Assembly (NCBI GenBank): GCA_000002445.1
Contig: AL929603.2
Span: forward strand, 608,001 to 672,000
DNA: 64,000 nt
Reading direction: 5' to 3'
From: Trypanosoma brucei
Lineage: Eukaryota
This document shows, in pieces, positions 7,001-59,006 of the stretch. A model generated the notes under the pieces. That model saw only the letters and a program-made list of their open reading frames with translations. It made no database searches and was not told where the DNA came from. How positions within the stretch are numbered: the stretch's first letter is position 1; every line of letters starts with the position of its first letter. Made by a program: the position numbers and the translations under genes.

Positions 7001-8595
7001 ATATATAAATATTTATTAATTAATATATTTGTATAAGGGGAGATATGAAATATGAAATGTGGTAAGAAATAAATAAGAATACGAAAAGGAAAAGGAAAAG
7101 AAAAAAAAAGGAAACACGTTTCAAATAAATTTTAGTTCGATACATTCCGTCGAGCTCATTTCATTTATGCATCAAACTCTTTTCCATCTTCCATTGTTTC
7201 ATATTATTATTTTTTTCCCCTCTTCCCCCGTGTCTTTTCTCTCCTCTTTCCACCACGCGTAGGCGTCACCTCAACTCTTATGCGCATGTTTTGAAATTAA
7301 ATTAAATTAATTTGATTTGATTTGATTTGATTTTTCAAAAAGAAAAAAAAGAAAAGAAGTGATCCCCTGGGAGGGGCGCAACGCTGTGCAATCGCGTATT
7401 CGTGTCTCTGAAATTCCCTTTTTGTTTGTTTGTTTGTTTGTTTGTTTGTTTTTATTTGAAAAGGTAATAGTAAAAAAAAGAAAATAAACAAGCAAGCAAA
7501 TAAATAAATAAAGGGAATTTTTATTTTTTTAAAAAAAAAAAAGAGGAAAGGAAAGGAAAGGAAAACGAAATAAACGTGTATTTTTTCTTTTCTTTTCTTC
7601 TCTTTTTTTGGTATTACAAATAATATGATCATGTTGCGCCGTCCCCGTTTGTGTGCTGCTTATGCATGATGATGATGATGATGATGTTTTGTTTTTGTTT
7701 TTGTTTTTGTTTTCAGTTGTTGTTGTTGTTGTTGTTCTTTTTATTGTTTCATCTTTTTCTTTTTTTTTCCTTCTTTTCCATTACTTCTTGTTGAAGAAAT
7801 TAATTGTTTTTTGTTTTTGTTTTTTGTTTTTTGTTTGTTTTTTGTTTTTTGGATGTTTGCTTCTGTGCTTTTTTTTCCTCTTTTTGGAATGTTCCCGTCA
7901 CTCGTCAGTTTTCCAACTGCATTACTGAAAAGAGGCGGGAACATTCCAAAAAGAGGGAGAAATGAAGAGAAGAGAAGAGGGATTTTGTGAATCCCAAACA
8001 AGAGAAAGGAGAGAGAAAAGATATACAATAAACCACTTGCAAATGCAAATGCAAATGTAAAAAAAAATGATTGAATTAAATTAATAAGTTATATATGTAT
8101 CTGATTTAAATTGGTTTAAATTGACAAAAGAAAAAAACGTTCCCTTCTTTTTTTTCCTCTTTTTTTTCTCTTTTTTTATTTCTTTTTTTTTATTTTATTG
8201 GTTATACATCAGTATGGGGAAATATAAAACCAAGTAAAAGACACATATTAGTTATCATAGTAAATACACGCCATAAAAAAAAAAAAGTGGGGGAGAATAA
8301 CCTCGAACATCCCTTCGAAGTTGGCTAAGTTCAAAAACAAAAACAAAAAGGAAGGGGGTCACCCATACATATTTGTATTCATTAAACAAACGCAAAGAAA
8401 AGGAAAAAAAGAAAGATAGAAAAGAATAAAACAAAAGAGAAATATATATATATATATACGTACACATATAGAAGTAAGGAAGGAAAAAAAGAAAGAAAGA
8501 ATTTTTATAAAATAAGGGAAAGAGGAATAAAAAGAAGCAATAAATATTACTTTTGAAAAAGATATCTATCTATCTGATATATATATATATATATA
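4034..8595 (+). other. 4.5-kb ORF-poor low-complexity spacer (probable long 3'UTR/intergenic region with pyrimidine tracts, (TA)n, (GTTT)n, C14 runs)
   Basis: There are no ORFs with non-repetitive translations. Six-frame ORFs here translate to poly-F/L/K/C strings. A (tttg)n run lies at about 7425-7450 and 'gatttgatttgattt' at 7311-7330. C14 homopolymers lie at 4883-4896 and 6689-6702. Confidence 0.6.
6973..6992 (+). other. G-quadruplex-capable motif (GGGGAGGGGAGGGGAGG)
   Basis: Four G runs of at least 3 with 1-nt loops, read directly. Confidence 0.5.
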
Positions 8596-50814: not shown

Positions 50815-53800
50815 ATGCTTTTTGGGGGAAATGGTTCGCATAGCGAAATGCAATGCAGTGACGGGAAAACATGTGAATGTAGCCCTCGACTCACGAAAAA
50901 GTACACTTTTATTCCATTATGTTCAAGTCGTTTTACCATGTTGTTGTCCATCCCGGTAAGAAGTGGGTGCGAAGCAAACAGTTTAACGGTAACAAGGGAT
51001 AGAAAACATGGAACAAGTAATTGCGCTCCTCCATCAGTTGAGGTGTCACCCTGCGCATCTTCGTTTCTGGTAGGTGACGCCGCACAAATTGTTGTTTGCC
51101 TCCTGAAGTCACCGAGCGTGTACCAAATCTGTGGAACCGTTTTGTTCCGTCAACATCGAGTTGGCTCACTCGCGTGTTGCTTTGTGGAACCTGAGGGCCG
51201 GTGGGGCGACTTTGGTTGTTCAGCAGTGACAACTCTCACATCGAATGAATCTAAGAACATACACATCGGCGAGGGGAGCGATATAGTGTACTTTTCTTTT
51301 ATGTCCTCGACTGAGGTGATGGCAGTATCGTACGGGGCTTGCGTTGGGTACATGCAACTGAGCGCTGACAAACACATTATAAAAGGGAAGAGCATGCAAT
51401 TGGACGGCTTGTCAAACGTATCTTGTGCCTGTTTGGTCAATGAGCTGTCGTTATTGGTGGTACTGACCGAGAGGTATGTATGTGGAGTGGTGGATATTCG
51501 CAGCGGTTGTATTCTGGAGGTTGTATGCGACAGCATGCCGGTTAAATTAGGCATCCCGTCATCGTGCGTCCTGCTACAGCTAGGAGATAGTGGCACAATT
51601 GATATCATGGTGAACTTCCCCTCAAGTGTAGAACCACATATACTCACTTTGCGGAGAAAACAATGTGAACCCCCCTCCGCTGACGCGCAAAAGCGTGTCA
51701 AAGCCAAGCATAATTCTCACCTCAAGGATCTAACAGGTGGGCTGTGCACCAAGCGTTGCGAAGATTTTTCCCTTGTGGCATCCGTTGGGTGGGAAATGGT
51801 GAAGTTTCTAGTCATGCAAAAGGGGAAATTGCGGGGCCTCGCTAATTTTGAAAACGAAACTGGTACGCCCTTTTTCTCTGGATTTTGGGCCGGTGATCAT
51901 TTTGTTGCTATCCGTGCCGATGGTTTGGTTGTATTCCTGTCGGTTGAGTTGCACCAGGGGCACTTCGATAAGCTTGAGATTTCCACGTTGGGAAGCATGG
52001 ACCTCATATCTTGCAGCGCTGCACTCTTGTACGAACAGTCCGATCGCTTCTTTGTTTTAGCGGTGAAAAACATGGAGGCACTATGGAACAACGCATCTGA
52101 TGCAGTCTGCATATCGGATAGCAACAACGCAAGACGTATGCTCAAGTGTCATACCGCCCCTGTATGCCCGACGGGCACCGTATTGGTTGACACGGTGTTC
52201 TTTCGTGATGGAATTGCTCTGCTCACCGTCGAGTCTTCCGGAGACTGCTCAGCGACATTTTTAACTGCGTCGGGAGCCCCATCACTGCTATTGGCGAGGG
52301 AAAAAAATCCAGAAGATATTGCCAGTTGCCTGTTGTACGACCAAAGAGAAACAATTTTCGTCACGGGGCACCAAGACGGAACACTGCATGTTTGGATTAC
52401 GGTACAACTTAGACACATCGTTCATACAGGACACGCAGGGCCGGTGGACAAGGTAGTGTTACTACCCGAAGGCGGAAAACGGTGTAGTTACGGCTTCATA
52501 TCCGTCTGTACGCAACGTGGGAGCGTGGTAGTGCATCACGCCGAGACATTTGAATGTGTATGCGTGGTGCAGGCGCCAAGTGCCCCACTTACCAGTCTAC
52601 TGTGGGATCCGTCGAGTGAGTGCATGATTGCAATCAGTGGAACTCTCGGAAACCTTTGGCACGCACCCACACATTGTATTCGGTTCGCTTTTCACACTTC
52701 GTTGTGCACTGCTGAGGGCCTAAAACGACCGGATCTACTGCGGTATCCATACAGGAGTGAAGACGTGGAGGTAGATAAAATCTCCGTGTGTGGAAGAACT
52801 TATCTTTCCATCCGTGTAGATGTGGCGTCCCTTCTCGACGCACTGAGTCAGCGCGGTGCGGGTGAATTAAGACCAAGTAGCCGGATCGTGCTGTCTCTTT
52901 TATTTTCTCGACTCAGTCAAGTTATAAAGCAGTTAAGGGAGTTTGCTGGGTCTACGAATACCTCGAAGGATGGTCATGAGTTTTTTAGTCCAGTCAATGG
53001 GGTTCAGTCTGGCACGTATACATTAGCTACTTCCATTGCGTGCAAATTACTTAGCGGCTCGCGGGGATCCGCGGATCTTGAGAAGGTGATATACGGAAAG
53101 GAACTTTGTGACTCGCTTTTGAACTCAGGTTGTATTGCGGAGGTGCCGACACCCGAAGACATTATTATCCAAGCGTTTCCGCTTCTGTTAAAACTGACAG
53201 AAGTAGCACGAAAGGCAGTCCGTCAGTCCATCAGGGCAGCAATGGCTTTGCTTCCAACACAGAGGTTAAACGACCTGGTGAAAAATCTCCTCAACAGTGC
53301 CTCCAGCGACTCATCGATACGTCGTTGGTTTGGGGTGTCATATTCAACTTCAAACGTTGATGTGTGGTGCTATAGCCTGTTGATTCAGCTGACCATTGCT
53401 AGTGAGGCACCAGCAGCTGAATGTGCGGACGCAGTGTCTTCTGTGGTACAAAGCCTTCGTACGGAAACGCCGTGCTTTGCGAAGGTGCTCGTAGCCGAAG
53501 GCGAAACTCAACGCCTTCTATTTTTTTTACTCGTTCTTAGAGACTACTACGCGTACATGGCCGGAAACCTACTAACCGACTTACAACCCGTGGCTGACGC
53601 CGTGGCGACACTGGCATTCGAAGCAGATGGTAATGTTTCTGCGTCAGCAGTGAAAACCCTGCTAGTGATCACCATCACAGAAGGAAGACCTTTCATACAA
53701 GACTACCTAAATAGGTGGTATAGTACCAATGTCCACTGGAGACCCCGCCTACTTGGGTTCTTGGGAAGCCTAATTCAGGTGGCGCCTCTTCAGTCGTACA

Positions 53801-54354
53801 TTTCATTTTCAACAATGAGGGAACTGTTCCTACAGGCGTATGATCCACACAATCCCAGTAGGGTAGAGAGGGACGCGTGTGCAATGCCAGCGCTTCGTTT
53901 GATTGGTCTAGCGGTTACTTACCTTCCCAACGTTTCCTTTCAGCAGCAGCTGCAGTACCTAGCTGTAGGCAACCACGACGGTGTTGTACAGGTCATCGAT
54001 TTAAAAACAACCGGTATCATCGCCTCATTTGCCTCCCACACAGAAGCTATCCTTTGTGTCTCATATAGTAGCAACACGTCGAGCCATGACATCGCGGTTC
54101 TTGGCGAAAAAATGAATCAGGTAAAGGTGTGGCATGGAAGCCGCTCCACTGGTGTATTCGGTGCACTGTTTTCGGGCCCCACGATTGAATTTCGTCTCAG
54201 ATTCGTCGTTGATATACCACTACTCACGACATTCGATCCGGTGTCGTGTGACCTGCAGCTATTAGTTACCAAGTGCAAGCTGAAGTGGCTCTCGCCGCGA
54301 TGTGTTGAACTGTGCACACCAGTTCATGACAGATTGAGACTAACTGTTCCGTAA
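50815..54354 (+). CDS. large WD40/beta-propeller-containing hypothetical protein, 1179 aa
   Basis: WD-repeat-like units: 'VTGHQDGTLHVWITVQL...HTGHAGPVDKVVLL' and 'LAVGNHDGVVQVIDLKTTGIIASFASHTEAILCVSYSS'. The ORF is long with uniform coding composition. The true start may be an internal Met. Confidence 0.55.
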   Translation: MLFGGNGSHSEMQCSDGKTCECSPRLTKKYTFIPLCSSRFTMLLSIPVRSGCEANSLTVTRDRKHGTSNCAPPSVEVSPCASSFLVGDAAQIVVCLLKSPSVYQICGTVLFRQHRVGSLACCFVEPEGRWGDFGCSAVTTLTSNESKNIHIGEGSDIVYFSFMSSTEVMAVSYGACVGYMQLSADKHIIKGKSMQLDGLSNVSCACLVNELSLLVVLTERYVCGVVDIRSGCILEVVCDSMPVKLGIPSSCVLLQLGDSGTIDIMVNFPSSVEPHILTLRRKQCEPPSADAQKRVKAKHNSHLKDLTGGLCTKRCEDFSLVASVGWEMVKFLVMQKGKLRGLANFENETGTPFFSGFWAGDHFVAIRADGLVVFLSVELHQGHFDKLEISTLGSMDLISCSAALLYEQSDRFFVLAVKNMEALWNNASDAVCISDSNNARRMLKCHTAPVCPTGTVLVDTVFFRDGIALLTVESSGDCSATFLTASGAPSLLLAREKNPEDIASCLLYDQRETIFVTGHQDGTLHVWITVQLRHIVHTGHAGPVDKVVLLPEGGKRCSYGFISVCTQRGSVVVHHAETFECVCVVQAPSAPLTSLLWDPSSECMIAISGTLGNLWHAPTHCIRFAFHTSLCTAEGLKRPDLLRYPYRSEDVEVDKISVCGRTYLSIRVDVASLLDALSQRGAGELRPSSRIVLSLLFSRLSQVIKQLREFAGSTNTSKDGHEFFSPVNGVQSGTYTLATSIACKLLSGSRGSADLEKVIYGKELCDSLLNSGCIAEVPTPEDIIIQAFPLLLKLTEVARKAVRQSIRAAMALLPTQRLNDLVKNLLNSASSDSSIRRWFGVSYSTSNVDVWCYSLLIQLTIASEAPAAECADAVSSVVQSLRTETPCFAKVLVAEGETQRLLFFLLVLRDYYAYMAGNLLTDLQPVADAVATLAFEADGNVSASAVKTLLVITITEGRPFIQDYLNRWYSTNVHWRPRLLGFLGSLIQVAPLQSYISFSTMRELFLQAYDPHNPSRVERDACAMPALRLIGLAVTYLPNVSFQQQLQYLAVGNHDGVVQVIDLKTTGIIASFASHTEAILCVSYSSNTSSHDIAVLGEKMNQVKVWHGSRSTGVFGALFSGPTIEFRLRFVVDIPLLTTFDPVSCDLQLLVTKCKLKWLSPRCVELCTPVHDRLRLTVP

Positions 54355-54972
54355 GCGCCCCGCTTTGGACACGGGATCTCTTTGAATTTGCTCGTGCCAT
54401 CGCCCCCAAGTGAAGTTTGTTCCTGCATGAAACCGTGTATGCCAGGCGCATTCAGCGCGAAAAGGCAACTGTTGTTTCCCAAAATCAGCAAGAACACTTC
54501 AACGAGCACTCCTTGTTTTCACTAAACAGTCACCTCCATACATGCACGCGAGGCGCGTCTGTCTTCGCTTATTCGTTGTTGTTTGCTTCGTTTGGCTTAC
54601 AGGTGTTTAGTTGCTGATACAAAAAGCGACGGAATAACAGCTCTCGGTAACGGCTGCTTACTTGCCTAGCTTCACAACGGTTCGTTTCGGAAAGTGGGAT
54701 GGGGGAGGGGGGTGACGAGGCTGCTTCCCGGATCAATTATTGTTAGTGTTACCGCTAAACCCGCCTACAACCCCTAAGGATCATTAGTTGTTCCTCGATG
54801 ATGTAGCACGTTTGCTCGCCCCTAAAGGACGTAACAGCAGAGGTACTGTATTGCTAATGGTGGCACATATGCCCCCTGTATAGCAACGACTTGCGTTAAC
54901 CTGCTACGCACACGCACCTATTCCCTAACTTTTCTTTTTTATAAACCGAAGCTCAGTTGTGTAAGAAGCGAA

Positions 54973-55269
54973 ATGGCCGGGGAAGCGGGACTTCCATGGG
55001 TGGCACGCTTCATTAACCACATCTTAACGCCCGGATCGGCCCTCTCGCCGGTGGTTTGGTGCGCGTTCAACGTTGTGATGGCCGCACTGCTCCTGTGCTG
55101 GCTACCGTTGCTTATTTCTATGCCATCGAATATACACCTCTGGGTGTTCGGCTTCCTTGGCGCCGGTCTGGCCTTCTCCACCAATTGGTTCTTCAGGGAA
55201 CTTTCCGCCAGGCCCCCAAGTGCTGCAGAAGCTACCGAGCACGAAGTTCGTGAGAAAAGGAACCAATGA
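54973..55269 (+). CDS. small two-transmembrane protein, Pkr1-like (V-ATPase assembly factor family), 98 aa; possibly unannotated
   Basis: Translation 'VARFINHILTPGSALSPVVWCAFNVVMAALLLCWLPLLISMPSNIHLWVFGFLGAGLAFSTNWFFRELSA' has two hydrophobic helices. By my recollection of yeast Pkr1 it aligns as follows: '..PG(T)S..L....V.....LLL..W..........NIH(F/L)(Y/W).........W(F)..ELS'. It sits in a 1.3-kb gap between two + strand genes with GC3-rich codons. Confidence 0.45.
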   Translation: MAGEAGLPWVARFINHILTPGSALSPVVWCAFNVVMAALLLCWLPLLISMPSNIHLWVFGFLGAGLAFSTNWFFRELSARPPSAAEATEHEVREKRNQ

Positions 55270-55657
55270 CACACAAAAAGGGGGTGAGAAAGGACGGGGC
55301 TAGCAGGCACTAGGGCTCTTAAAGCGTTTGTGGGAAAGCGACTGTTGGAATGTAAACGGTGCTAGGATCGATTCGGACATGTTTCCCCATGCGATACGAA
55401 TCCTTTCGCCTCTTCGCTTGCGCTCATATGGTTTTTCCAACACCCGCACCACTGGCCTGTCCGGTTTTCAAGAGTATTTTTGCGCAAAGGGCAACAGAAA
55501 TGGCAGCAACCCAAGAAACAACACAATCTCTTTTCTCATACTACCTGTTATTCCCTAACACCATGTTCACTTATTTGACTTGTTTGCTTGTTCGTTGCAC
55601 TTCGTTACGTCTCCCGTCCGCTGCCCATTAACGTTCCCCTTTCACACGTAGACTCTG

Positions 55658-58600
55658 ATGTTAACCCCGACACGGCGGCTCCCGAAGGCGCTTTCCCCCT
55701 ACGCCCAAGCGCTGAGGCACGTCGCTCTCAGGGGTGCCACCGCTTTTGGCCCGGGCGCAAAAGAGATGGAATTGGATATGCTCCGGAAAGGAACGCTGCC
55801 AGCCGACTACAGGCCACCTGTCCAAGGAAGGTGGGACGATACCATTGAGCGGTGGGCGTATGCCTGGCAGTTCCCAGCAGAAGAAGAGCAAGATGACATT
55901 ACCAAATCGGTGGAACGCAATGCGTCAGGCATGCAAGCGCTATTGGAGATTGGAAACAAGTTGCTGCGCTCGCCGCCATCTCCAGAACCCCTCTCTGGGA
56001 AAGCTTCCAAGTTGTATCCACCGGTTGGGGACATGTCGAGTGGAAATACCGCATTGCTTCCACCCAACCCCACCTACGATGTACTGGAGCAGGACGTGTC
56101 GGAGCTGATGGCAGAAGACGCAGTGGTTGTGGCTTCCCAGCCCCGTCTACGCGCAGAGGAACTCTCAGCGAAGTACAACGTTCCCATGGCTTACATCGAT
56201 GACAGCTCAGAGGCCAGTAATGCGAGTAAAAGCCTTGCCCTCGTGATGGAGGATGTCGGTTTAGAATTTACAGAGGATGGTCTTACCGTAGTCATATCTG
56301 CCCTATCGAGGCAAGGGTACGGCACCATTGGTCGAGCTATTTTTGATTTTGCCTCCACCATGGGGCTGGGGCCTTCTGCCGAGATGTACAAAGCATTGAT
56401 GAAGTACGCCTCACGACGCGGAGATGTGAACGAATCCATGGCTCTCATTGAAGAAATGAAGGGAAATGGAATTACACCCCGCATCGGCAACTGGCACGAA
56501 CTTATGTACACCTTCTACAAGGCAAAGGACTACCCTGCAGTGAGTCAAATAGTGGATAACATGAAAATGTATGCCAATATCGAACCCAATGAAGTCACGT
56601 TTGTACTTCAACTTAAAGCACTGGCCAAAGACAACTCCCAGTTGAACTCTCTCCCCGAGGCAATTCAGTTGTTTGATCAAATGGAAAATGTCTATGGCTT
56701 TATAGCGTCACGTCCCCATTATGATGCCATGATGTTTCATCTAAGTCAGAGTCCGCGACCGGAAATGAGGCTCCGGTGCGAGGAATTGGCCCACAAAATG
56801 GAGTTGATGGGGATTGTATGGAATGCCAACACATATCTTAACCTTATTCGCTCAGCCCAGGTAGTCGGTGATGTTGCGGCTGTTGAAAAGTACCTCAGTA
56901 GAATGCGCGAGGAGGGGATCCCAGCAAGCATCGGGCACCTAACATGGGCCGTTCAAGCGCACGTACAAAGCATGATACGGATAGATTACGATGCGCTGAA
57001 GGAAAAGGATGAAAGCCCCCTTCCTACTTGGCTCGAGCATCTTGAAACGTGTTTTGGTATCTACGAGCTAGTCGTCCGACGCGGATGGGTAATGCAGCTC
57101 CCCTTCGTGAACGCACTTCTTCGCCTAACCTGCCAAGCTACCATCCTTTCCATGGAGCGCACGCCAGATGAAGCAGAGACCATCGGTAGGTTCGAGGAGC
57201 AAGCCAACAAAATTTGGAATCATACATTTGACGAATGGCAACTGCAAAAGGACGTCTACAGCTACGAATGTTACATTGCGCTTCTGGCACACCAGCAGCG
57301 CATCGATGAGGCTGAGAAACTTTTTCAAGAAATGATACTAAAGAAGGATCTGTCACCGTCTAGGAGAACATATCACTGTATGATCTTCATGCACCTGTCG
57401 TCGGGTGAGGAAGGAGGAACTGCGAGGGCCCTCAGATATCTGGAGGCAATGGAGCGCGCCGGTATCCAGGTTAGGCCATCCCTTTTGAAGAAAATCGTTC
57501 GGGTAAATAACGCTGCGGGGTACAAACGAGATATGAAGCGGCGTGCGCGGCGTATCATGCAGGCGAGGGAGGAATACCTTGCTAGGAAGGCAGAGGGCGT
57601 TAGCTTCGGGGAAGGAGGGAAGGAAGGAGCTTCGAATCAAAGGGCAGATGTTGACGCGGAGGGAAACTCCATCCTAGAGCCTCTCGCTGTTTCTCCCACT
57701 TCAACGCTAGCTTGGTGGGAAAAGTGGAAGCGGGAGACCGTGAGTAAGCACGAGCTGTTTACTGAGGAGGGAGCTGACGGCACTCCAAAGGGAGAAACGT
57801 TCGAAGAAAAAAATGAAGCTCTCCGGATGATGGGCATCACGTCCTCATTTCAAACGAAGGATCTCGTCCCGCAACCCGACAGACAGAAACTGCTGCCTCT
57901 CATCAGAAGGGAAGAGGGGGAAATCGCGGGTAGCCTTTGGGCAATGGATGGTGGTGAGTTGTCGTATCCGAAGGATGGGGGCGGCCCACAAGGTTGGGGT
58001 GTCCGGCTCTGGCGTGAGCGGCAGCTTGTCAAGCGGGAATACCAGAAAGTTTTGGACGGATATCGTCCTGTTCCCCAGCTTTCAACACTTGGAAACTCTG
58101 TCCGAACGGCCGGTGACCAATTAGATATTGAGAGGAGTGGGGCGCAGACGCCTGGGGAATTGTCCGATTATCGAAACTTTCCTGATAACCGCTTTGACGG
58201 AGGTCAGCTGAAACCCGAGTCAGAGGCAGCTCCAGCAGTTCCCTTTTCCGCAGAACTGGTCTGGCAAGGGGAAGCCAATGACAAGCTCTCGCCCTACAAG
58301 TCCGACGAGGAAATTGCCCTTGAAAACGACAACACTTTCTTTTCAAGCCTTTCCAAGGAAACGGAGGGAAAGCTAAGTATAGCGGTGAAGGCGATGCAAA
58401 ACAAAGAGGAGAATTCTGTGGATGTTAGAGGAAAGGGGGTGACGAGACGTTCTAAGTTTGATTACTTGGAAAAGTGGAGAGACATGTATCGGCACGGCAC
58501 ACTGGAGGTGCCTGAGGGACCAACACTGAATTTTGGCCGCACGCCAGACGATCACAAGGAGACAATGGCAGCTTTGGTTCGCGGTTGGTATCAACGCAAT

Positions 58601-58732
58601 AGGAAGGAGCCAGCATCCGAAGAAGAACTGAAGAGGTGGAGGGTCGATGAGCAGCGAAGCAGCGAAACATCGGCCTCGCGTGCGGCGCTCAAGAAGCGAA
58701 AGCAGGTACGAAGTCGTCACAGAAATAAATAG
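55658..58732 (+). CDS. pentatricopeptide-repeat (PPR) protein, probably mitochondrial, 1024 aa
   Basis: Degenerate 35-aa helical repeats of PPR type. Examples: 'EMYKALMKYASRRGDVNESMALIEEMKGNGITPRIGNWHELMYTFYKAKDYPAVSQIVDNMKMYANIEPNEVTFVLQLKAL' and 'YSYECYIALLAHQQRIDEAEKLFQEMILKKDLSPSRRTYHCMI'. The N-terminus 'MLTPTRRLPKALSPYAQALRHVALRGA' is R-rich and amphipathic (presequence-like). Confidence 0.6.
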   Translation: MLTPTRRLPKALSPYAQALRHVALRGATAFGPGAKEMELDMLRKGTLPADYRPPVQGRWDDTIERWAYAWQFPAEEEQDDITKSVERNASGMQALLEIGNKLLRSPPSPEPLSGKASKLYPPVGDMSSGNTALLPPNPTYDVLEQDVSELMAEDAVVVASQPRLRAEELSAKYNVPMAYIDDSSEASNASKSLALVMEDVGLEFTEDGLTVVISALSRQGYGTIGRAIFDFASTMGLGPSAEMYKALMKYASRRGDVNESMALIEEMKGNGITPRIGNWHELMYTFYKAKDYPAVSQIVDNMKMYANIEPNEVTFVLQLKALAKDNSQLNSLPEAIQLFDQMENVYGFIASRPHYDAMMFHLSQSPRPEMRLRCEELAHKMELMGIVWNANTYLNLIRSAQVVGDVAAVEKYLSRMREEGIPASIGHLTWAVQAHVQSMIRIDYDALKEKDESPLPTWLEHLETCFGIYELVVRRGWVMQLPFVNALLRLTCQATILSMERTPDEAETIGRFEEQANKIWNHTFDEWQLQKDVYSYECYIALLAHQQRIDEAEKLFQEMILKKDLSPSRRTYHCMIFMHLSSGEEGGTARALRYLEAMERAGIQVRPSLLKKIVRVNNAAGYKRDMKRRARRIMQAREEYLARKAEGVSFGEGGKEGASNQRADVDAEGNSILEPLAVSPTSTLAWWEKWKRETVSKHELFTEEGADGTPKGETFEEKNEALRMMGITSSFQTKDLVPQPDRQKLLPLIRREEGEIAGSLWAMDGGELSYPKDGGGPQGWGVRLWRERQLVKREYQKVLDGYRPVPQLSTLGNSVRTAGDQLDIERSGAQTPGELSDYRNFPDNRFDGGQLKPESEAAPAVPFSAELVWQGEANDKLSPYKSDEEIALENDNTFFSSLSKETEGKLSIAVKAMQNKEENSVDVRGKGVTRRSKFDYLEKWRDMYRHGTLEVPEGPTLNFGRTPDDHKETMAALVRGWYQRNRKEPASEEELKRWRVDEQRSSETSASRAALKKRKQVRSRHRNK

Positions 58733-59006
58733 TAAAAGTGAAAGGAAACGGAAACGGAAACGGAGGGAAGGCACAGAGGATGCACCCAGAGGGGGGAAAA
58801 GAGTGCCTCTTTTTTGTGTTATCATCACCCGCCTTATCTGCCGAAACCGGCGTGATTTCTATCTGTTATCACCATTTAAGTGACACTTTTATGTAGCTGC
58901 ATCAGTGAGCGTGGCGTGGTTACCGCCACTTGAACATGTTCGCTTCTTCCCACTTGGACTGTGGTCATTTTCTTCAGAAGTCTCAAAACCAACACTGCCC
59001 CCGAGC

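Follow-up and report, generated by a model that had tools for sequence, protein, structure and literature searches.

This study concerns a short open reading frame (ORF) in a 64,000-nucleotide stretch of Trypanosoma brucei chromosome 1 (GenBank assembly GCA_000002445.1, contig AL929603.2, positions 608,001 to 672,000 of the forward strand), referred to throughout as the window and numbered from its first letter. The ORF runs from ATG to TGA at window 54973–55269 on the + strand and encodes a protein of 98 amino acids (aa), MAGEAGLPWVARFINHILTPGSALSPVVWCAFNVVMAALLLCWLPLLISMPSNIHLWVFGFLGAGLAFSTNWFFRELSARPPSAAEATEHEVREKRNQ. It is a real, expressed and already annotated gene, Tb927.1.2985, and by sequence its product is a member of Pfam family PF08636 (Pkr1). 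We consider it very probable that the gene encodes the T. brucei Pkr1 orthologue, an endoplasmic reticulum (ER)-resident two-helix hairpin that helps to build the V0 sector of the vacuolar H+-ATPase (V-ATPase).

Family membership is carried by a Pfam match of 42.6 bits (E=6.6e-11) against a gathering score of 27.7 bits, aligning residues 12–79 with positions 6–70 of the 73 in the PF08636 profile. This was the sole significant family in the Pfam scan of the window protein, and a scan of NCBIfam gave no match, as expected of a prokaryote-centred library. The preliminary description of the window, made from the letters alone, had likened the ORF to a small ER protein of the Pkr1 type with two transmembrane (TM) helices, a resemblance that the HMMER comparison with PF08636 bears out. 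The motif order it had quoted is also present, as PGSALSP (residues 20–26), NIHLW (53–57) and FFRELS (73–78). When a family profile built from ten Trypanosoma sequences was scored against 1.84 billion representatives, this Trypanosoma-only profile recovered 122 proteins at E<=1e-3. The matches that could be named include proteins of Diplonema and Cryptobia, a hypothetical protein of Collybiopsis, and fungal proteins that already bear the Pkr1 name, a 'Pkr1-domain-containing protein' of Saitoella and a 'V-type ATPase assembly factor PKR1' of Tilletia. A second named search brought in proteins of Ectocarpus and marine-eukaryote transcriptome (MMETSP) sequences, nearly all with PF08636. An alignment of 42 diverse family members shows P20, G21 and H55 without variation, and L66, S69 and W72 conserved to at least 90%. 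Identity to the fungal members is only about 26–31%. The family motifs are all found in the window protein: PG before the first TM helix (TM1), N-I-H at the turn, and S-x-N-W-F..E ending the second (TM2).

The window protein is identical to the T. brucei brucei TREU927 entry CAJ16494.1 / XP_001218996.1 (UniProt Q4GYS5, UniRef name 'ER protein Pkr1') and a single residue separates it from the T. b. gambiense / T. equiperdum protein 'ER protein Pkr1, putative'. Naming differs by source, with GenBank using 'hypothetical protein, conserved' and both UniRef and TriTrypDB using Pkr1; the TriTrypDB identifier Tb927.1.2985, 'ER protein Pkr1, putative', is given in a transcriptome paper (PMC9136415). 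The published coding sequence (CDS) lies at 662973..663269 of Tb927_01_v4, between Tb927.1.2980 at 658938..662354 and Tb927.1.2990 at 663658..666732 (PMC4210626). Between the window gene and Tb927.1.2985 there is no difference in sequence or coordinates, and they are the same gene. The ORF had been thought easily missed by gene callers. This proved incorrect, the gene being annotated here (CAJ16494.1 / Tb927.1.2985) and called in every Trypanosoma genome examined. The wider remark that short ORFs often go unannotated in trypanosomatids does not apply to this gene; it holds in part further afield, where the orthologues of Leishmaniinae and Strigomonadinae are labelled only 'hypothetical protein'.

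Both the transcript and its translation have been mapped. In the data of Jensen et al. (2014) the 5' untranslated region (5'UTR) begins at chromosome 1 position 662952, which is window 54952, in agreement with TriTrypDB v5 (PMC4210626 additional file 6), and this spliced-leader (SL) site accounts for 5466 reads, 99.15% of all SL reads of the gene (PMC4210626). The transcript interval given by Vasquez et al. (2014) is 662952–663269. Normalised ribosome-footprint counts are about 71 in procyclic, 110 in slender bloodstream and 186 in cultured bloodstream forms, with matching mRNA counts of about 248, 189 and 433, respectively (PMC4210626). Jensen et al. accepted the annotated start codon, and the gene is absent from their non-coding removals (PMC4210626), while the ribosome profiling of Vasquez et al. 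(2014) gave translation efficiencies of 0.79 and 1.25. The preliminary description had named a trans-splice site within 54700–54970 and ribosome footprints as the signs to look for. Both are found, the SL acceptor at window 54952 and the footprints in three life-cycle samples (PMC4210626). At the protein level, the TrypTag project records the N-terminal fusion of Tb927.1.2985 as 'endoplasmic reticulum, nuclear envelope' (PMC9981465 supplementary file 2); C-terminal tagging was attempted, with no cell line recorded (PMC9981465).

PF08636-bearing orthologues have been annotated in T. congolense, T. vivax, T. grayi, T. conorhini, T. cruzi, T. theileri and T. melophagium, that of T. melophagium being named 'V-type ATPase assembly factor Pkr1'. 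The trypanosomatid orthologues, with those of Leptomonas, Angomonas and Strigomonas, have the length class, motifs and gene neighbourhood of T. brucei Pkr1, and identity to the T. brucei protein is 99% in T. b. gambiense / T. equiperdum, 68% in T. theileri, 66% in T. congolense, 64% in T. melophagium, 62% in T. cruzi and 61% in T. grayi, with 76% over 81% of the query in T. vivax. Among ten Trypanosoma sequences 40 of the 98 positions are invariant. In codon alignments with T. cruzi, T. theileri and T. grayi the differences cluster at third positions (approximately 30/20/58 by codon position), the proportion of synonymous differences (pS) being near saturation at 0.74–0.80 and that of non-synonymous differences (pN) 0.23–0.27, falling to 0.12–0.18 in the core. 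These comparative sequence data show that the + strand frame has evolved under strong purifying selection.

Gene order is likewise conserved. The ORF lies within a gap of 1303 bp (54355..55657), and both flanking ORFs are on the + strand. The upstream one, 1179 aa in its first-ATG form and ending at 54354, matches DUF7048, DUF7051 and WD40/beta-propeller domains, and the downstream one (55658..58732, +, 1024 aa) matches PPR repeats. The earlier picture of a 98-aa ORF standing alone, on the same strand, in a 1.3-kb gap between a WD40 and a PPR gene is therefore accurate. The order WD40/DUF7048-DUF7051, Pkr1, PPR recurs in T. cruzi (loci L001 and L002), T. theileri (L006) and T. grayi (L007), and also in Leptomonas seymouri (L008, Leishmaniinae) and a kinetoplastid assembly (L004). 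The preliminary description had proposed T. cruzi and Leishmania for a check of synteny; the ORF holds its syntenic position in T. cruzi and also in Leptomonas seymouri, which is closely related to Leishmania. No orthologue from a named Leishmania species was recovered by the homology searches, which were limited by a word index, so that absence cannot be inferred. The Leptomonas, Angomonas and Strigomonas orthologues score 21–27 bits on PF08636, just under the 27.7 cut-off, and are labelled 'hypothetical protein'. Sub-threshold orthologue loci lie at 7001–7300 of L008 in Leptomonas seymouri, at 7001–7375 of L009 in Angomonas deanei, and at 8001–8537 of L004. The product called at the last of these is 178 aa and longer than the clustered form of 124 aa, which suggests that its start has been over-extended. 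A more distant Pkr1-like protein of 179 aa, with no Pfam match at E<=0.01, is found at 8001–8540 of L003 (Logan SRR7467761). Its neighbourhood differs, being flanked upstream by a PUF protein and downstream by LRR and RRM/MLLE proteins, and the WD40-Pkr1-PPR synteny is thus not found in all euglenozoan-like assemblies.

The features of the gene and of the predicted protein are collected in the table below. TM1 (approximately residues 24–50) is strongly hydrophobic, its Kyte-Doolittle 19-residue mean reaching 2.36 and staying at 1.6–2.36 across residues 21–54, whereas TM2 (approximately residues 54–74), with many Gly, Ala and aromatic residues, is only moderately so and reaches a maximum of 1.33. 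Of the 'two clear hydrophobic helices' described earlier, the first is thus as stated and the second is less clear-cut. An AlphaFold2 model computed from the ten Trypanosoma sequences, with a mean predicted local distance difference test score (pLDDT) of 62.9 and a predicted template modelling score (pTM) of 0.31, places helices at residues 9–17, 26–49, 54–78 and 85–97, the core being a helix-turn-helix hairpin with a four-residue turn. In size (98 aa, in a class of approximately 80–130 aa) and in its modelled architecture of a two-helix membrane hairpin, the protein is of the Pkr1 type. Within the short N-terminal helix A11, R12, N15 and H16 are invariant among the Trypanosoma orthologues. 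No residue between positions 13 and 74 is charged, and this, with the turn of about four residues and the charged tail that carries a dilysine end in most relatives, points to a topology in which both termini are cytosolic and the NIH turn is lumenal, since a dilysine motif must face the cytosol for COPI binding.

Features of the Tb927.1.2985 locus and of its predicted product, in window coordinates
Feature	Coordinates	Strand	Basis
Polypyrimidine tract CTTTTCTTTTTT, guides trans-splicing of the Pkr1 mRNA	54929..54940	+	Sequence; 10 nt upstream of the mapped acceptor AG
AG trans-splice acceptor, first AG after the polypyrimidine tract	54950..54951	+	Sequence; PMC4210626 additional file 6
5'UTR of the Tb927.1.2985 mRNA, 21 nt, 3' of the spliced leader	54952..54972	+	PMC4210626 additional file 6
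CDS of Tb927.1.2985, ER protein Pkr1	54973..55269	+	ORF; Pfam PF08636; exact database match; ribosome footprints; purifying selection
Short N-terminal helix WVARFINHI, residues 9–17, probably cytosolic or at the membrane interface	54997..55023	+	AlphaFold2, low to moderate pLDDT
Family-invariant Pro20-Gly21 ('PG' of the LTPGS motif), just before TM1	55030..55035	+	Alignment of 42 members
TM helix 1, residues 26–49	55048..55119	+	Hydropathy; AlphaFold2, block of highest pLDDT in the model
Asn53-Ile54-His55 motif, short uncharged inter-helix turn, probably lumenal	55129..55137	+	H55 invariant in 42 sequences, consensus NIH
TM helix 2, residues 54–78, with conserved GL..S.NWF..E motif at 65–76	55132..55206	+	AlphaFold2; hydropathy maximum 1.33
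Charged C-terminal tail, residues 79–98, ending KRNQ, probably cytosolic	55207..55266	+	Charge distribution

The extreme C-terminus sets Trypanozoon apart from the other trypanosomes. Dilysine ends are common among Pkr1-family members, although Pfam does not define the family by them. Of 166 family hits, 73 have a KKxx or KxKxx end, where chance would give about 3% from the composition of the tail, and all eight of the non-Trypanozoon Trypanosoma orthologues have KKxx. The Trypanozoon proteins end in KRNQ (window 55255–55266), with Lys at –4 and Arg at –3, the arginine being encoded by AGG, one base from AAG. The Lys at –3 is usually held to be critical for the COPI retrieval signal. Despite the KRNQ end, the N-terminally tagged protein is still annotated to the ER (TrypTag, PMC9981465).

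The proposed function follows from homology with yeast. There, assembly of V0 takes place in the ER and involves five factors dedicated to it, Vma21p, Vma22p, Vma12p, Pkr1p and Voa1p (PMC3164464, PMC6249795, PMC7483274), of which Pkr1p has no mammalian orthologue (PMC7483274). The Saccharomyces cerevisiae protein, founder of PF08636, is an ER V0 assembly factor (Davis-Kaplan et al. 2006, cited in PMC3164464 and PMC7483274), and shares with the T. brucei protein the Pfam family, the form of a small two-helix membrane protein, the ER location and a genetic link to the V-ATPase. The PG, NIH and NWF..E motifs are common to T. brucei Pkr1 and the fungal members, and the identities given above are to those fungal members that were recovered. 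By analogy, T. brucei Pkr1 would be a dedicated ER factor that promotes assembly of the membrane V0 sector, perhaps through direct contact with V0 subunits. With less Pkr1, fewer V-ATPase pumps would be assembled and the acidification of endosomes and lysosomes would be weaker, which in turn would reduce lysis mediated by APOL1, and such a chain could place Pkr1 knock-down among the determinants of resistance to human serum. PKR1 is listed as a validated RNA interference (RNAi) hit for human-serum resistance, together with V-ATPase subunits a, F and H and with RAV1 (PMC5790291 Table 1), and the phenotype would act via reduced V-ATPase assembly.

Several points weigh against or limit this reading. 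The RNAi hit is known from a secondary table (PMC5790291 Table 1), the primary report being Lecordier 2014 (Mol Microbiol 94:625); PKR1 is not mentioned in Vanwalleghem 2015, and Tb927.1.2985 is not listed in the supplements of PMC5790291. A literature search returned no direct biochemistry on binding of T. brucei Pkr1 to V0 or on loss of V0 upon its depletion, and a review calls PKR1 a putative assembly factor, 'not confirmed' outside the original yeast work (PMC9280200). On the structural side, the confidence of the AlphaFold2 model is only moderate, the hydropathy of TM2 is under the classical threshold, and the KRNQ end is without the canonical –3 Lys of a dilysine ER-retrieval signal. In searches of the PDB with the single protein and with the family profile, a family member was found in no solved structure. 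The single-protein search gave only insignificant matches of TM composition, and a Foldseek comparison of the model with the PDB found nothing better than E=7.9, a small hairpin of moderate confidence being little informative in such a search.

These points leave some room, though not much, for a reading in which the protein is a true Pkr1-family ER membrane protein whose main task in trypanosomes is something other than V-ATPase assembly, the serum phenotype being indirect. It might then serve generally as a chaperone in the ER membrane, or regulate another ER complex as one of its small subunits. The function of Pkr1 has been tested only in yeast, with the review cited above regarding it as unconfirmed, the identity to fungal members is low and the literature search yielded no trypanosome biochemistry. 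Mammals, moreover, are without a Pkr1 orthologue, so that Pkr1 must be dispensable for V-ATPase assembly in some lineages. Against such a role elsewhere, the gene is listed from a selection that also yielded V-ATPase subunits a, F and H and RAV1, a component of RAVE, which is what would be expected of a V-ATPase biogenesis factor, and the ER location matches the site of V0 assembly. That a role in V0 assembly has the better claim is, in our view, very probable, and an unrelated main function is accordingly judged unlikely.

The remaining alternatives question the identity of the gene. A 123-aa ORF with a GTG start spans the whole Pkr1 CDS antisense on the minus strand (54939..55310), and the Pkr1 ORF is itself short, so it might be asked whether the latter is a chance intergenic ORF, with the longer frame on the opposite strand as the real feature. 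This has next to no likelihood. The antisense frame is open only in T. brucei, while in T. cruzi, T. theileri and T. grayi one or two stop codons interrupt it, and it lies antisense within a run of + strand genes; it is no gene but a spurious by-product of the sense ORF. The sense ORF, in contrast, matches PF08636 above threshold, shows purifying selection, is syntenic across trypanosomatids, receives the spliced leader 21 nt 5' of its ATG and carries ribosome footprints. Conservation and expression together exclude both the chance and the antisense ORF. It is also very unlikely that the protein is a different small two-TM V-ATPase assembly factor, either Vma21 or a free-standing Vma12/TMEM199 hairpin. 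Vma21p/VMA21 resembles Pkr1 in size, in its two-TM hairpin, in ER residence and in its place in the V0 assembly pathway, and its terminal KKXX retrieval signal is similar to the dilysine end of most Pkr1-family members. It differs in its conserved motifs, however, and has no sequence-family match to Pkr1. For Vma12, the Pkr1-family profile aligns weakly with residues 133–208, the C-terminal TM hairpin, of yeast Vph2/Vma12 (8eat_B), at an hmmsearch E=0.04 and with an hhalign probability of 45% over 40 columns; this similarity is below significance and could reflect TM composition alone. Pkr1 is the sole significant Pfam family, and neither a VMA21 nor a Vma12 model is matched even at E<=10; a Vma21 identity was rejected on this result.

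The alignment with 8eat_B 133–208, itself non-significant, spans window 55045–55263 (residues 25–97) and pairs an Asn near the start of TM1, a His located in the turn and a tail rich in Lys. A relationship between Pkr1 and the membrane hairpin of Vma12/Vph2 is weakly suggested by this comparison. One may speculate further, and with only a slim prospect of being right, that the Arg at –3 of Trypanozoon, in place of the Lys otherwise conserved there, weakens COPI-dependent retrieval, so that T. brucei Pkr1 would travel further with nascent V0 or depend on another form of retention, and that the Pkr1 hairpin is a distant, free-standing relative of that of Vma12/TMEM199. The evidence for the two ideas is weak, being a single-residue change and the E=0.04, 45%-probability profile match. 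If true, the kinship with Vma12/TMEM199 would connect two V0 assembly factors so far regarded as unrelated.

Some features of the neighbouring genes were also seen. The first-ATG form of the WD40 ORF starts 123 nt (41 codons) 5' of the annotated start of Tb927.1.2980 at window 50938, the additional region being 50815–50937. The annotated start gives a protein of 1138 aa, in agreement with T. cruzi (1138 aa) and T. theileri (1139 aa). For this gene the SL site has been published as chromosome 1 position 658568 (window 50568), 5' of both ATGs, which places the earlier in-frame ATG within a 5'UTR of 370 nt. At 6 nt, the 5'UTR of the PPR gene Tb927.1.2990 is very short, the published SL site lying at chromosome 1 position 663652 (window 55652), just 3' of the AG at 55650–51, with 2113 reads and 99.9% usage. 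A gene for the F-actin-capping-protein beta subunit is located between the PPR and the M20 peptidase/aminoacylase genes in T. cruzi (L001, 12017–13474), T. theileri (L006, 9940–11400) and T. grayi (L007, 9906–11321). In the window, the aminoacylase gene Tb927.1.3000 (start at chromosome 1 position 667007, window 59007) follows within about 270 bp of the PPR gene (58733–59006), so that T. brucei lacks the capping-protein gene at this position.

As a discovery the ORF is of low value, since the gene is annotated, its transcript and translation are mapped, the location of its protein is recorded and a phenotypic screen has reported it. It serves instead as a positive control, in that a 98-aa family member was recognised correctly by a reader of the raw sequence. 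Among the wider trypanosomatids, the 'hypothetical protein' orthologues of Leishmaniinae and Strigomonadinae could be renamed Pkr1 on the grounds of orthology and synteny. The biological interest is modest, and lies in the fact that V-ATPase activity governs the sensitivity of trypanosomes to human serum (APOL1). Pkr1 would represent a parasite- and fungal-type component in the biogenesis of this essential pump, one that is without a mammalian orthologue (PMC7483274).

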